A DNA stretch of 14,139 nt from a virus. Its lineage: Duplodnaviria; Heunggongvirae; Uroviricota; Caudoviricetes. Every line of letters begins with the position of its first letter. Position 1 is the first letter of the stretch. The position numbers are program-made. This document shows positions 9,001 to 12,000 of the stretch, piece after piece. The stretch lies in the IMG/VR virus record IMGVR_UViG_2703718861_000003. One strand, given 5' to 3'.

Positions 9001-12000
9001 GTCCAACCATTGAGCCAGGAGATCTCATCTTCGTTGATATCAGTATCAATCAGTTTGATGGGGATGGTATATATGTATTTGGTTTTGATGATAAAATTTA
9101 CGTCAAACGACTGCAAATGATACCTGATAAACTGCTGGTAATTTCTGATAATCAGATTTACCGCGAATGGGGAATTACCAGCGAAAACGAACATCGGTTT
9201 ATGGTCTTTGGAAAGGTCTTAATCAGTCAGTCACAAACCCTTAAGCGACACAATTAACCCCCTACCTCAATATCAATTAGCCACCAGAAGGTGGCTTTTC
9301 ATTACTCACCAAATTGCATATCTCGCAATAAAAACACTTGCATAATGCGCAACTTCATTTTATCTTTCTTTCCAGACATACAAACAAGGTACTAACAAAA
9401 TTTGGTTGTAACACGGCGTATGGCACATGCGTCGTTAGCGGTCTGGGGACGTTAAAGGGGACAATCCACTCCTTGCTCGGGCAAACAAACCAGGTAGCCG
9501 GAATGTGCAAGTCAATGATGATGCTGATAAGACGCCTAACCAGCGTGGCGGTTCGGTTTGACACCTGGGAAGAGACCAGGGTGCAACGATGAGGGCATTT
9601 ATGGAACCGCGACAAAGTGTGGTGCCGTAACTGGCTAAGTGCTCTCAGCGTTGTGGTGAATGCGCAGGCTGATGCGCGAAAGACATTGCAGCTATTGCGG
9701 AAAAGAGCTGTTCGGCGGGGCAATTAAACGCCCGTGAGAGTCTGAAATAACCGCAAGCCGGAGATCAGCACCGGTCACCACAACAGCCACTGCTTTGGCG
9801 GTACCAGTTTGTACACTTGCTTCCGGCTGGTACCGCTCTTTTTACAAAACAGAGAAGAGCATCACCGGACGACGGGCTCATAACCCAATCCATCCGGGCG
9901 GCTGCCACCGCAGGTGTTCTTCTCTGTTTTGTGGAGAAACCAACCGACCTTGCAGGGTCGATATGATGAGGAGCAACAAAATGGCTAGCGAACGCAGTAC
10001 TGATGTGCAGGCATTTATCGGGGAGCTGGACGGCGGCGTATTTGAAACAAAAATCGGCGCAGTTCTCAGTGAAGTCGCTTCCGGTGTGATGAACACGAAA
10101 ACCAAAGGTAAGGTCTCGCTCAACCTGGAAATCGAACCGTTTGATGAGAACCGTGTGAAAATCAAACACAAACTCTCATATGTTCGCCCGACTAACCGCG
10201 GGAAAATTTCCGAAGAAGACACCACCGAAACGCCGATGTATGTCAATCGCGGTGGTCGCCTGACTATTCTGCAGGAAGACCAGGGACAATTACTGACTCT
10301 TGCCGGTGAGCCTGACGGAAAACTCCGCGCAGCAGGTCATTAATATCGTTCTTAATTAACTGATTATTTATCTCATCACTGAATATCTTAATATAGTGAG
10401 GACTTATTATGTCTCAGAACTTAGACGCAACCGCAATTAATCAAATCCATGCCCTTATTTCTGCTCAGGGTGTTAATGAAATTATCAGTAAGATTGGTGC
10501 CGACGCAGTGGCATTACCTGAAAATTTCCGCATTCATGATCTGGAAAAATTTAATTTAAATCGCTTCCGTTTCCGTGGTGCGCTTTCCACTGCCAGCATC
10601 GATGACTTTACCCGTTATTCTAAAGATCTTGCAGATGAAGGCACCCGCTGCTTTATCGATGCCGATAATATGCGTGCCGTCAGTGTGCTTAACCTGGGTA
10701 CTATTGATGAACCAGGTCACGCAGATAACACCGCCACTCTCAAACTGAAAAAGACAGCACAGTTCTCTGCTCTGTTGTCTGTTAACGGCGAGCGTAACTC
10801 CCAGAAGTCACTGGCAGAATGGATTGAAGACTGGGCCGACTACCTTGTGGGCTTTGATGCTAATGGTGACGCCATTCAGGCAACAAAAGCGGCTGCGGCA
10901 GTCCGTAAAATCACAATTGAAGCGAACCAGACTGCTGATTTTGAAGACAATGACTTCAGCGGCAAACGCTCCCTGATGGAGTCTGTCGAAGCGAAGACCA
11001 AAGATATTATGCCAGTGGCATTTGAATTTAAATGCGTTCCGTTTGAAGGTCTGAAAGAACGTCCATTTAAATTACGCCTCAGCATTATCACTGGCGATCG
11101 TCCTGTACTGGTTCTGCGCATTATTCAGCTGGAAGCAGTGCAGGAAGAAATGGCTAACGAATTTCGTGATCTGCTTGTTGAGAAATTCAAAGACAGCAAA
11201 GTAGAAACCTTTATTGGTACTTTCACCGCCTGATTTCATTACTGCAAATGCTCCTGCGGGGGCATTTATGGAAACGTAATTAACTCAATAATCGCCGGAT
11301 GGTGCGGGATTCCTTTTACCCGAATTCAGCGCGGTGCAGCGCATATAAAGTGGAGAACGAAATGTCATTTATTAAAACTTTTTCCGGGAAGCATTTTTAT
11401 TATGACAAGATAAATAAAGACGACATCGTGATTAACGATATCGCGGTTTCCCTTTCAAATATCTGTCGCTTTGCAGGACATCTTTCACACTTCTACAGTG
11501 TCGCCCAGCATGCGGTGCTTTGCAGCCAGCTGGTGCCGCAGGAATTTGCTTTTGAAGCGTTAATGCATGATGCAACAGAAGCGTATTGCCAGGACATCCC
11601 CGCACCACTGAAACGACTTCTTCCTGACTATAAACGGATGGAAGAAAAAATAGACGCCGTAATCCGTGAGAAATACGGGTTACCTCCTGTTATGAGCACG
11701 CCAGTGAAATATGCCGATCTCATCATGCTGGCAACCGAACGCCGCGATCTCGGACTTGATGATGGCTCTTTCTGGCCTGTATTGGAAGGTATCCCGGCAA
11801 CAGAGATGTTCAAAGTGATTCCACTGGCACCGGGCCATGCCTACGGGATGTTTATGGAACGCTTCAACGAGTTATCGGAATTACGCAAATGTGCATAACT
11901 CATGTAGTTAGTTTTTCTGGCGGGAGAACATCTGCATATCTTGTTCACCTGATGGAAGAACAAAGAAAGGCTGGCAATAACGTCTGCTACATCTTTATGG

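Follow-up and report, generated by a model that had tools for sequence, protein, structure and literature searches.

In phage lambda, the leader that runs from PL to the first early-left gene carries nutL and N together with an RNase III site. The put RNA promotes terminator read-through in cis, in a manner dependent on the zinc-binding domain of the beta' subunit. Phage tRNA arrays also yield co-transcribed stable RNAs of unknown function, such as species 1 and 2 of T4, and the C4 RNA of P1 and P7 is processed by RNase P. Expression of the prophage-borne STnc100 RNA was observed by Northern blot (PMC5331693), and STnc100 has relatives in the Hfq-associated PasD sRNAs from prophages of Salmonella and pathogenic E. 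coli (bioRxiv 10.64898/2026.05.13.724894). In the related phage LLS, the authors found no N and guessed at a put-like mechanism (PMC12315714).

We analyzed the interval between cI and the first early-left gene (positions 9300-9980) in a 14,139-nt stretch of Caudoviricetes DNA (IMG/VR record IMGVR_UViG_2703718861_000003), hereafter the window. A sequence-only reading had described this interval as one structured, ORF-poor leader, possibly with a cis-acting antitermination element.

Four conserved noncoding RNA modules between cI and yfdP

Rather than a single leader, the noncoding interval comprises four conserved, folded RNA modules (A1, M, B and C) joined in a mosaic, with an intrinsic terminator within the chain (Table 1). 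The cI terminator and the OL-like operators lie ahead of the modules, as had been read, and a third copy of the operator motif was seen by inspection at 8531-8545 in the OR region. PL is a predicted promoter, too weak for the consensus promoter scan, which missed it.

Table 1. Features from cI to the first early-left gene, in window coordinates
Feature	Position	Strand	Description
cI gene	8565-9257		Peptidase_S24 and HTH domain matches
cI terminator hairpin	9279-9296	+	AGCCACC-AGAA-GGTGGCT, then TTTT
OL-type operators	9314-9328; 9338-9352		TTGCATATCTCGCAA; TTGCATAATGCGCAA; motif TTGC-N7-GCAA, by sequence reading
PL (predicted)	9338-43; 9361-66		-35 TTGCAT, 17-nt spacer, -10 TATCTT; putative start ~9373
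Module A1	~9400-9587	+	multi-helix RNA; conserved, covarying; no described family
A1 helix P1	9414-18/9430-34		invariant loop UAUGGCACAUG
A1 helix P2	9443-46/9490-93
A1 inner helix	9456-60/9469-73
A1 invariant junction	9494-9512		GGUAGCCGGAAUGUGCAAG
A1 helix P4	9532-36/9542-46
A1 helix P5	9564-68/9576-80
Module M	9583-9654	+	long interrupted hairpin
M arms	9586-9600/9637-9651		5' ACGAUGAGGGCAUUU pairs with 3' AAGUGCUCUCAGCGU; variable interior between
Module B	9652-9782	+	tRNA-shaped RNA with hypervariable insert
B closing stem	9652-58/9776-82		7 bp, UGUGGUG with CACCACA
B D-arm-like hairpin	9662-77		GCGC-AGGCUGAU-GCGC
B hypervariable interior	~9678-9756
B T-arm-like hairpin	9757-75		GCCGG-AGAUCAGCA-CCGGU
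Intrinsic terminator	9797-9843	+	13-bp stem, 15-nt loop, CUUUUU tract
Module C	9844-9932	+	three-way junction hairpin; stem ~19-24 bp
C arm 1	9874-86		GGG-CUCAUAA-CCC
C arm 2	9896-9909		variable
Proximal 5' UTR of first early-left gene	9945-9983	+	small hairpin 9945-60
SD and start codon	9968-73; ATG 9981		GAGGAG; yfdP-like gene, phrog_204

Folding of the leader (9355-9985) gave -231.7 kcal/mol (z = -4.6), which, with covariation in all four modules, agrees with the strong structure previously ascribed to the interval and goes well beyond chance expectation. That structure had been placed in the 3' part, where two inverted repeats (9798-9836 and 9846-9929) were indeed present. Hairpin 1 pairs 9797-9809 with 9825-9837 (dG -21.2 kcal/mol, z = -5.35; 0/200 shuffles as stable), and hairpin 2 has arms at 9844-9868 and 9908-9932 (25 nt, 84% complementary; dG -49.7 kcal/mol, z = -7.7). 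However, the 5' 450 nt are not featureless, as they hold the modules that are most conserved (A1, M and B).

Comparison across related phages revealed compensatory base changes in A1, M, B and C, each of which was present in >100 viral contigs; the sample covers limited lineages retrieved by exact-match cores, which fix some columns. In A1, 97.1% of cells were paired compared to 31-42% when partners were slid, and eight pairs had changed on both sides (score 0.264 versus <=0.07 for slid partners), with further compensatory swaps in a set of species. A1 alone was thermodynamically ordinary (z = 0.05); its 9423-28 and 9503-08 segments may form a pseudoknot. M folded at -33.3 kcal/mol (z = -4.7), and most of its 56 candidate arm pairs, which had been selected for complementarity, showed compensatory changes, while the interiors differ from phage to phage. 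Positions 3-9 of the B closing stem were 97-100% paired with UA/GC and GC/UA/AU swaps, and the T-like stem occurred as GCCGG/CCGGC, GUCGG/CCGAC, GCUGG/CCAGC and ACCGG/CCGGU. Among 31 pairs in C, seven carried double changes. G-U pairs far outnumbered A-C pairs in the stems, and all neighboring tRNAs were co-oriented with A1 (55/55) and with B (31/31); both findings support the assigned strand.

Exact-core searches of IMG/VR returned at least 120 contigs with A1 and at least 120 matches each for B and C; A1 was also found in about 20 Enterobacterales species representatives. The modules are common to P1, epsilon15-like, T1-like and T5-like phages, usually beside tRNA genes. A1 matches P1 right behind trnI, and O157 typing phage 9, TL-2011b, SPN1S and Tyrion right ahead of tRNA-Arg or B. 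The region was present in 1851 of 5426 complete E. coli genomes, about one third, Stx2-converting prophages included, and no annotated feature lay under the match in the rows inspected. Phage records carry only dubious hypothetical ORFs over the interval. E. coli K-12 CPS-53 lacks the modules; its homology begins only at the yfdP ribosome-binding site.

At gathering thresholds, Rfam reported only C4 (7112-7199) and isrK in the window, both outside the interval, on which only chance-level matches appeared at E <= 10. Nor did a scan of 19 A1-bearing genomic loci place any family over A1, M or B. Literature searches returned no paper with the conserved core strings and, as possible descriptions of the elements, only the STnc100 and Pas papers. 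With clear covariation and no Rfam family, A1 and C are two candidate RNA classes. An unannotated ncRNA had been one of the options offered for this interval, in agreement with these conserved, covarying, noncoding modules.

We further examined coding capacity. The ORFs at 9338-9592 (+) and 9355-9723 (-) matched no PHROG or Pfam family, and their reading frames were broken in every diverged homolog, consistent with the earlier view that both ORF-track entries are non-protein-like and that no convincing ORF precedes 9981. Closely related variants mostly keep both strands open, which left a stop-free-frame test of the modules uninformative; frame consistency in diverged homologs was used in its place. 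A conserved protein-coding gene was looked for in homologous prophages and none was found; NCBI PGAP called no feature in the interval among the E. coli RefSeq rows inspected, including at the minus-strand ORFs. These ORFs are annotated in mEp460 and phage cdtI, and the ORF at 9765-10169 (-) matches phrog_3651 at 1.6e-85, as would be expected if mEp460_037 (9355-9723) and mEp460_036 (with the phrog_3651 ORF) were real small proteins. However, their frames are not conserved, and tblastn matches to P1, typing phage 9, Tyrion and L074 switch frames. Beyond near-identical phages, the phrog_3651 ORF is kept only across module C and not across the part antisense to yfdP, and variants of C differ in length by 1, 2, 3 and 8 nt. 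Cys, Arg and His abound in the translations, which do not resemble proteins. It is thus almost certain that these ORFs are not genuine small proteins; mEp460_036, mEp460_037, cdtI gp40 and the family phrog_3651 are probably translations of RNA genes, and P1 plp/upl may be likewise.

The terminator and the modules beside it

Hairpin 1 is an ordinary intrinsic terminator, as identified by its stem, its U-tract (9838-9843) and the conservation of its position, and a terminator had been among the functions proposed for the interval. It forms the 3' end of the candidate B sRNA gene and is no part of a nut or put site. Terminators with unrelated stems occupy the same position in six relatives (SfV, ST64B, mEp390, Tyrion, SPN1S and typing phage 9). 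A consensus terminator scan missed it since the loop exceeds the 3-8 nt limit of the scan. The boxA-like string CGCTCTTTTTA is present at 9834-9844, but reading it as boxA does not hold, as it consists of the 3' stem and U-tract of the terminator. The site reads CCGCCCTTTTT, CCGTCCTTTTT or GCCGACCTTTTT in relatives, with variants CGCCCTT, CGTCCTT and CGACCTT, and is not conserved; a lambda-type conserved boxA with a boxB hairpin was not found in the leader. AGUGCUCUUUCC, upstream of B, was likewise dropped as an rrn-type boxA because this string makes up the 3' strand of the M helix and varies along with its partner (GCGCCGUUUCC, GUGUUCUCAA and others). The repeat GGGCATTTATGGAA (9593 and 11260) was rejected as a further module; it corresponds to the yfdQ-yfdR spacer hairpin, after C in SfII-type phages.

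In its consensus, the closing stem of B stacks directly on the 5-bp T-like stem, forming a 7 + 5 bp acceptor/T-arm minihelix, which suggests processing by tRNA-maturation enzymes. The loops AGGCUGAU and AGAUCAGCA are complementary to each other over 6 nt. ARAGORN found no tRNA genes in the window, nor did the Rfam tRNA model RF00005 match it. The slot of B is equivalent to that of a genuine tRNA-Arg, which fills it in Uetakevirus relatives: the spacer AGTGCTCTCAGCGTT leads to tRNA-Arg in typing phage 9 and SPN1S and to B in the window and Tyrion. Hammerhead, HDV-like, attC, MITE and group II boundary readings of B were dropped for mismatches in topology or motif on reading the sequence.

The STnc100 model (RF02076; gathering threshold 47 bits) gave no match at E <= 10 on 9200-10050. 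The Rfam scan proposed with the sequence-only reading found no family over the interval. Syntenic relatives of B (the B' elements of SfV, SfII, ST64B and P1) reached 33-39.5 bits on the STnc100 model. B' and B have in common UGGUGAAU, two flanking hairpins and a terminator, and these STnc100-scoring elements also have GUUGUGGUGAAUGCG in common with B of the window. Compared with the Rfam consensus and structure line, B has the UGGUG/CACCA closing helix and GAAU junction of STnc100. In both, one hairpin follows directly after the junction and a second, CCGG..CCGG, abuts the closing helix on its 3' strand; variable hairpins fill the stretch between these two, and a Rho-independent terminator lies ~15-25 nt downstream. 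The length of STnc100, ~190-210 nt, also resembles that of the B sRNA gene. B differs in its hairpin loops and in its other, hypervariable interior, and it sits in a multi-module cassette, probably driven by PL, whereas STnc100 and PasD occupy late-region or stx-proximal sites. B itself lacking a match, the sub-threshold intermediates and the shared motifs link the two; B with the terminator is most likely an sRNA gene of the STnc100 superfamily, as a distant relative. Such a link would tie the STnc100/PasD sRNAs to phage tRNA arrays and suggests that they originated when such an RNA took over the slot of a tRNA.

Module C always has a U-tract before it and the first early-left gene after it, whichever gene that is. 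In 106 of 139 cases this is a yfdP-like gene, as at 9981 in the window, where the earlier gene assignment was confirmed; on reading the sequences, the others inspected were RdgC-like or YfdR-like. The core of C, in arm 1, includes 14 nt identical to the anticodon arm of initiator tRNA-fMet.

This tRNA-derived look of many pieces, with B in a tRNA slot and T-arm-like fragments in the arrays of P1 and phage 6991, could mean that the interval is a relic, a decayed tRNA-gene array moved by recombination in which hairpins serve only as terminators or linkers with no RNA function. The absence of tRNA calls by ARAGORN and Rfam in the interval would fit such decay, and the conserved GUUGUGG/CCACAAC junctions between modules could be recombination joints for shuffling. 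However, helices upheld by compensatory changes in four modules and many lineages are unexpected for decaying pseudogenes. Furthermore, loops and junctions are invariant across genera amid variable flanks, and virulent T1-like and T5-like phages retain the modules in compact genomes. We consider a relic quite unlikely.

Module A1 and the question of antitermination

No Arg-rich N-like protein was found in the 14-kb window, either by PHROG and Pfam searches of the early-left ORFs or by an Arg-rich-motif scan of all ORFs, in agreement with the initial observation. A put-like element had been suggested in the 3' hairpins, one of which is the terminator. Neither HK022 putL/putR nor the annotated HK639 putL-like RNA matched the window (blastn, word size 7), and the put consensus (~70 nt, two stem-loops, CGAACGGC...GGAUGA core) was not found in it. 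Only A1, and not the two hairpins, lies just downstream of the early promoter. A putative cis-acting antitermination role would fall to A1 alone.

A1 might then be a cis-acting processive antiterminator resembling put in function and not in sequence, replacing N by allowing read-through of the cassette terminator and later ones. It begins ~27-40 nt past the putative PL start in the window. Among lambdoid phages, it lies within ~5-40 nt of the predicted transcript start in four or more immunity types, and in Uetakevirus cassettes it also follows the promoter. Wherever such lambdoid or Uetakevirus loci were read, A1 was succeeded by one or more intrinsic terminators and, beyond these, by protein genes in the same orientation; P1 is an exception, where A1 directly follows trnI and precedes ban without an evident terminator. 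Like HK022 and HK639 put, A1 would be a structured RNA right after PL in a lambdoid phage without N (none was found in LLS either), ahead of terminators before early genes, and its highly conserved junction nucleotides are as expected for a protein-docking RNA. In the sister phages SfV, ST64B, SfII and mEp460_4F5, a conserved 65-nt element X takes its PL-proximal place; element X has only short motifs (RGGAUGA) in common with put and was not assigned to it. In contrast, A1 has ~185 nt and at least five helices and bears no sequence or structure likeness to put, and no second copy was found downstream of PR. Non-lambdoid phages have A1 within their tRNA arrays, and it can take internal places in an array, behind trnI (P1), behind B (L329) or behind M-type hairpins (L334 and L336). 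In self-contained cassettes that end in a terminator, it would be pointless if it switched termination off. We regard an antiterminating A1 as unlikely.

The 5'-leader position, the complex conserved junctions and a terminator ahead of regulated genes are also features of a ligand- or factor-sensing leader (riboswitch or attenuator), with A1 or B as the putative sensor and 9797-9843 as the expression platform gating the early-left genes. The GUUG/CAAC strands common to adjacent helices (A1 closing stem-M and M-B) would allow mutually exclusive pairings. However, ~210 nt of independently folding modules separate A1 from the terminator, and a non-systematic reading of the sequence found no alternative pairing that breaks the terminator stem. 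Elsewhere these modules lie ahead of tRNA genes or form free-standing units that have a promoter and a terminator of their own, and Rfam gave no riboswitch match. These findings make a sensing leader very improbable.

A proposed early RNA cassette and its counterparts

We favor, by a little over even chances, a model in which 9373-9843 is a PL-driven noncoding-RNA cassette (A1, M, B and terminator) and 9844-9980 is the 5' UTR of the early-left mRNA. A1, M and B circulate within tRNA-gene arrays of Enterobacterales phages. Once CI is off OL, RNA polymerase would transcribe the cassette first, and most transcripts would end at 9843, giving a precursor of ~470 nt. Cutting at or near the M hairpin would release stable A1 and a ~190-nt B sRNA with the U-tail of the terminator. 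The terminator is probably leaky because of its unusually long loop, and the read-through fraction would carry on through C to the early-left operon (yfdP, yfdQ, yfdR and onward). C, with its ~24-bp stem, would likely be a processing or stabilizing element that sets the 5' end of the mRNA. A leaky terminator with read-through would act as an attenuator, setting the ratio of early sRNA to early-left mRNA without N. The 13-bp GC-rich stem followed by five U's could instead make termination efficient, and expression of the early-left genes would then depend on an antitermination device outside the attenuator model. How early-left genes are expressed past the terminator in N-less lambdoids of the SfV/ST64B/mEp460 group is thereby made a testable question.

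More speculatively, A1, M, B and C may form an undescribed modular RNA system of Enterobacterales phages derived from tRNA, acting as decoys or inhibitors of tRNA-directed host defenses or as programmable regulators of host mRNAs, with A1 perhaps a new class of polymerase-modifying antiterminator RNA; we hold this to be rather unlikely. If so, arrays of tRNA-shaped scaffolds would bear hypervariable cargo (B), a complex RNA of 185 nt (A1) and, in C, a mimic of the anticodon arm of initiator tRNA, and infection or induction would lead to their transcription before anything else. Targets of such decoys would be anticodon nucleases (VapC-type toxins) or tRNA-modifying toxins.

The interval occupies the same genomic position as the lambda leader, and C, as a long hairpin just upstream of the ribosome-binding site of the first gene, corresponds by position to the RNase III site of the N leader. 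Unlike the lambda leader, the window has neither an N gene nor boxB at this site, and its boxA-like string is not conserved. Like T4 species 1 and 2 and C4, the cassette modules are structured RNAs other than tRNA that lie among phage tRNA genes in the same orientation; in the cassette of the window, the tRNA itself is replaced. These comparisons suggest that the nutL/N position of lambda can hold a cassette of early noncoding RNAs instead.

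Organisation and mosaic origin of the interval

The window matched the mEp460 phage at 99% identity over positions 9258-9990 and represents an mEp460-like lambdoid prophage; its features are collected in the table. The sequence-only reading had described the interval between cI and the first early-left gene (9300-9980) as a structured leader with non-protein-like ORFs, and this description held. The full leader folded with z = -4.6, its two ORFs had no PHROG or Pfam family, and diverged tblastn matches switched reading frames. PGAP called no gene there in the E. coli RefSeq entries inspected. 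Of 5426 complete E. coli genomes, 1851 carried the region, and the entries inspected had nothing annotated beneath the match.

Features of the window and consensus parts of module B
Feature	Position	Strand	Details
383-aa ORF	6509-7660		'Rha' in mEp460
C4 antisense RNA (Rfam)	7112-7199	minus	82 bits
isrK (Rfam)	7224-7300	minus	62 bits
cro-like gene	8207-8467	minus	with cI flanks the OR region
cI	8565-9257		HTH and Peptidase_S24
cI terminator	9279-9296		downstream of cI
Two 15-bp operators	9314-9328, 9338-9352		TTGC-N7-GCAA, same motif as in OR
Predicted PL, weak sigma-70	TATCTT at 9361-9366		TTGCAT, 17 nt, TATCTT; overlaps second operator; our own reading of the sequence, below the threshold of the consensus promoter scan
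A1	about 9400-9587
M	9583-9654
B	9652-9782
B closing stem	consensus		7 bp, UGUGGUG/CACCACA
B junction	consensus		AAU
B hairpin	consensus		GCGC-AGGCUGAU-GCGC
B hypervariable interior	consensus		25 to >150 nt
B hairpin (T-like stem)	consensus		GCCGG-AGAUCAGCA-CCGGC; abuts 3' strand of closing stem
Terminator	9797-9843		stem 9797-9809 / 9825-9837, then CUUUUU
C	9844-9932		arms 9844-9868 / 9908-9932
yfdP-like gene (phrog_204)	start 9981		first early-left gene; preceded by GAGGAG
yfdQ homologue (DUF2303), yfdR homologue (5'-deoxynucleotidase)			downstream of yfdP-like gene

Sensitive blastn against phage genomes revealed that the leader is a mosaic. Positions 9400-9577 matched P1 (79%) in an unannotated gap beginning 2 nt past trnI, ahead of ban; 9413-9656 matched O157 typing phage 9 and TL-2011b (82%) in a noncoding stretch leading straight into a tRNA-Arg gene; and 9637-9785 matched the P1-like phage RCS47 (96%) just downstream of tRNA-Asn and tRNA-Thr. 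A 40-nt core (9638-9678) recurred at ~92% in T1-like, T5-like and other Klebsiella, Salmonella, Erwinia and Edwardsiella phages, while 9796-9990 was common to SfV, SfIV, SfII, ST64B and phiNP. Side-by-side reading of the homologous loci yielded four conserved noncoding RNA modules, which we named A1, M, B and C, and a terminator. Nearby tRNAs were co-oriented with the modules (55 of 55 for A1, 31 of 31 for B) and G-U pairs were far commoner than A-C pairs in the stems, which indicates that the plus strand, in the direction of PL, is the functional one. Neighbouring helices had GCAAC and GUUGUGG strands in common (9582-9587 / 9583-9588 and 9651-9658), such that M overlaps both the closing stem of A1 and that of B; therefore, adjacent modules can pair in mutually exclusive ways. 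GUUGUGG/CCACAAC punctuated the modules in all arrays examined.

Elsewhere in the window, C4 and isrK fell within the 383-aa ORF, and the Pfam Phage_ASH match to aa 117-213 of this ORF covered the same nucleotides. By analogy with the c4-icd-ant arrangement of P1, the true antirepressor start probably lies downstream of C4, and the Phage_ASH family may consist partly of translated RNA genes.

Structure of A1, M, C and the terminator

The folds of the modules and their comparative support are shown by the analysis. The 19-nt core of A1 was present in at least 120 IMG/VR contigs, and A1 occurred in prophages of ~20 Enterobacterales species, including Escherichia, Citrobacter, Klebsiella, Kosakonia, Enterobacter, Kluyvera, Buttiauxella and Erwinia. 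No Rfam family matched over A1. In a 23-sequence alignment its helices were 97.1% paired, against 31-42% with the 3' partners slid; 8 pairs had double changes, and covariation scored 0.264 compared to ≤0.07 in the slid controls. Such controls leave some phylogenetic signal in. The homologues were fetched by exact-match cores that fix some columns and favour close relatives. The long P2 helix showed swaps across the species set (CACUGAU/AUCAGUG, GGGAU/AUCCC, CAGCGU/ACGCUG, AUGGA/UCCAU), and the loops and junctions UAUGGCACAUG, UCCUUG, GGUAGCCGGAAUGUGCAAG, YUCACCA, GGCGAUWCGGUGUGAC and GGAAGAGA were near-invariant. A pseudoknot, GCACAU/AUGUGC, is possible; both of its strands are invariant and hence carry no covariation signal. 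Because the fold energy of A1 alone was not thermodynamically unusual (z = 0.05), the support for this module is comparative.

M is a long interrupted hairpin (-33.3 kcal/mol, z = -4.7) whose interior varied from phage to phage. Its arms, ..GAUGAGRGCAUU / ARUGCUCUCAGC.., covaried in many lineages (GAACACUGG/CCAGUGUUC, GCGCACUCC/GGAGUGCGC, GAUUAUUGG/CCAGUAAUC), a list chosen for complementarity and descriptive only. A resemblance of UGCUCUUU to rrn boxA was rejected, as the string is the 3' strand of the M helix. In another part of the window, AGTGCTCTCAACGT (1624-1637, plus strand) matched the 3' arm of M (9638-9651) at 13 of 14 positions, where two minus-strand ORFs meet (chance expectation ~0.005).

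Both inverted repeats flagged from the sequence alone were recovered as stable folds, the first as the terminator (-21.2 kcal/mol, z = -5.35) and the second as C (-49.7 kcal/mol, z = -7.7). The string at 9834-9844 that had been called boxA-like was instead the 3' stem and U-tract of the terminator, and it was not kept in relatives. The terminator begins 14 nt past B, and terminators whose stems are unrelated in sequence occurred at the corresponding position in SfV, ST64B, mEp390, Tyrion, SPN1S and typing phage 9. Since the position is kept though the stems differ, the terminator appears to be a conserved functional 3' end. Its loop is 15 nt, which is long for an efficient intrinsic terminator.

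The C core was present in at least 120 IMG/VR contigs, and RNAalifold analysis of 19 diverse variants gave a three-way junction of 31 pairs, 7 of them compensatory. A U-tract immediately preceded C in nearly all variants. C preceded whatever gene opens the early-left operon: a yfdP-like gene in 106 of 139 cases and, among the others inspected, RdgC-like or YfdR-like genes by our own reading of the sequence. Within its most conserved part, CGACGGGCUCAUAACCCAAUC (9870-9890), 14 nt were identical to the anticodon arm of E. coli initiator tRNA-fMet (17 of 21 overall; the tRNA sequence was checked against all 5426 E. coli genomes). The shared arm comprises the loop CUCAUAA and three G-C pairs, a trio characteristic of initiator tRNA, and the C core could be what is left of a tRNA-Met gene, or else act as a decoy or mimic. 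An ORF antisense to C and yfdP (phrog_3651, mEp460_036, cdtI gp40) was kept, beyond near-identical phages, only over C; because its conservation stops there and the lengths of C variants differ by 1, 2, 3 and 8 nt, this ORF appears to be spurious.

The motif UUGUGGAGAAAC(C/U)AA occurred in four copies, three of 16 nt at 94-100% identity and the fourth as a 13-nt core. Those in minus-strand sense (2990-3005, 7663-7678, 632-644) each lay just upstream of an ORF start; the plus-strand copy (9927-9944) was the 3' end of C, with no start codon at SD distance.

Proposed cassette and the antitermination alternative

In our proposed reading, PL drives an ncRNA cassette made up of A1, M, B and the terminator, and the true 5' UTR comes after it, consisting of C, a small hairpin and the SD. 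Upon derepression, most transcripts would stop at 9843 and then mature into stable RNA species. RNase P/Z and RNase III or E are candidate enzymes for this step, given that B has a tRNA-like geometry and M is a long helix. Read-through transcripts would pass through C into the early-left genes, and the terminator would thereby act as an attenuator. Where transcription of the cassette starts, how efficiently it ends, how the RNAs are processed and what they do in trans are inferences on our part.

The main rival is that A1 could be a processive antiterminator, put-like by function; the sequence-only reading had raised a put-like element as one option for the interval. A1 is promoter-proximal in several lambdoid immunity types and Uetakevirus cassettes, contexts in which terminators stand before co-oriented genes, and its place is filled by another conserved element, X, in SfV, ST64B, SfII and mEp460_4F5. 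As had been noted, no N-like or Arg-rich protein was encoded within the window by PHROG, Pfam and Arg-rich scans of the ORFs. However, put, the antiterminator RNA of HK022 and HK639, had no similarity to A1 or to the window as a whole, the PR side carried no A1 copy, and A1 also occurred at internal array positions and in terminator-ended cassettes.

Element X (AACAGGCAGGACGCCCACGAAGUAGCCGCC..CCAGGAUGAUUCG, ~65 nt) was present in 51 phage records. It lies right after PL in SfV (~700-790 of locus L235), ST64B, SfII, SfIV, phiNP, mEp460_4F5, mEp237 and Yersinia, Pantoea and Pectobacterium phages. It is unannotated, overlaps the start of 'orf33' in SfV and has only short motifs in common with put. 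Besides a putL-like RNA, HK639 (NC_016158) carries an annotated 'M3-like RNA' downstream of cII (37910-37969), which had no similarity to the window.

Module B and the STnc100 superfamily

In the consensus, the closing stem and T-like stem of B form a 7 + 5 bp coaxial stack resembling a tRNA acceptor/T-arm minihelix. Among 86 distinct variants, closing-stem positions 3-9 were 97-100% paired, with UA/GC and GC/UA/AU swaps, and the T-like stem occurred as GCCGG/CCGGC, GUCGG/CCGAC, GCUGG/CCAGC and ACCGG/CCGGU. The loops were mutually complementary over 6 nt (GCUGAU/AUCAGC), one of them being fixed by the retrieval pattern. The decisive observation was positional: in typing phage 9 and SPN1S, the spacer AGTGCTCTCAGCGTT leads into a genuine tRNA-Arg, and the same spacer leads into B in the window and, at the homologous Uetakevirus locus, in Tyrion. 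The slot behind this spacer also has other occupants. On an IMG/VR contig (L083, 3947-4070), a B-type element had a miniature tRNA-like insert as its variable interior (GUAGCUCAGUUGGUAGAGC ... GGGUUCAAGUCCCGCC); the B scaffold can therefore enclose tRNA-derived cargo.

The STnc100 model RF02076 matched the syntenic elements of SfV, SfII, ST64B, P1 and RCS47 at 33-39.5 bits, all below its gathering score of 47 bits. In the Rfam alignment, the UGGUG/CACCA closing helix of STnc100 is followed by a GAAU junction, then a 5' hairpin and variable hairpins; a further hairpin, CCGGG-AGGCA-CCCGG, abuts the closing helix, and an intrinsic terminator comes shortly after the RNA body, as for B. The SfV element bridges the two, as it agrees with the window's B at the 5' end, GUUGUGGUGAAUGCG, and with the STnc100 consensus at the 3' end, CACCGGGAGGCACCCGGCACCA. 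The window's B gave no match to RF02076 even at E = 10, so B appears to be a distant variant of the STnc100 superfamily rather than a member.

In P1 (AF234172, 69472-70041) and RCS47, plus-strand M-type and B-type/STnc100-like modules follow tRNA-Asn and tRNA-Thr and are overlapped by the minus-strand ORFs plp ('putative lipoprotein') and upl, which may be spurious. A sub-threshold STnc100 match lies at 1071-1190 of the P1 locus (L005).

STnc100 is a multi-copy prophage sRNA seen on Northern blot in EHEC (PMC5331693), and its kin are the Hfq-associated PasD sRNAs (bioRxiv 10.64898/2026.05.13.724894). We found no description of A1, M or C in Rfam 15 or in the searchable literature; B is a novel variety of a known prophage sRNA type.
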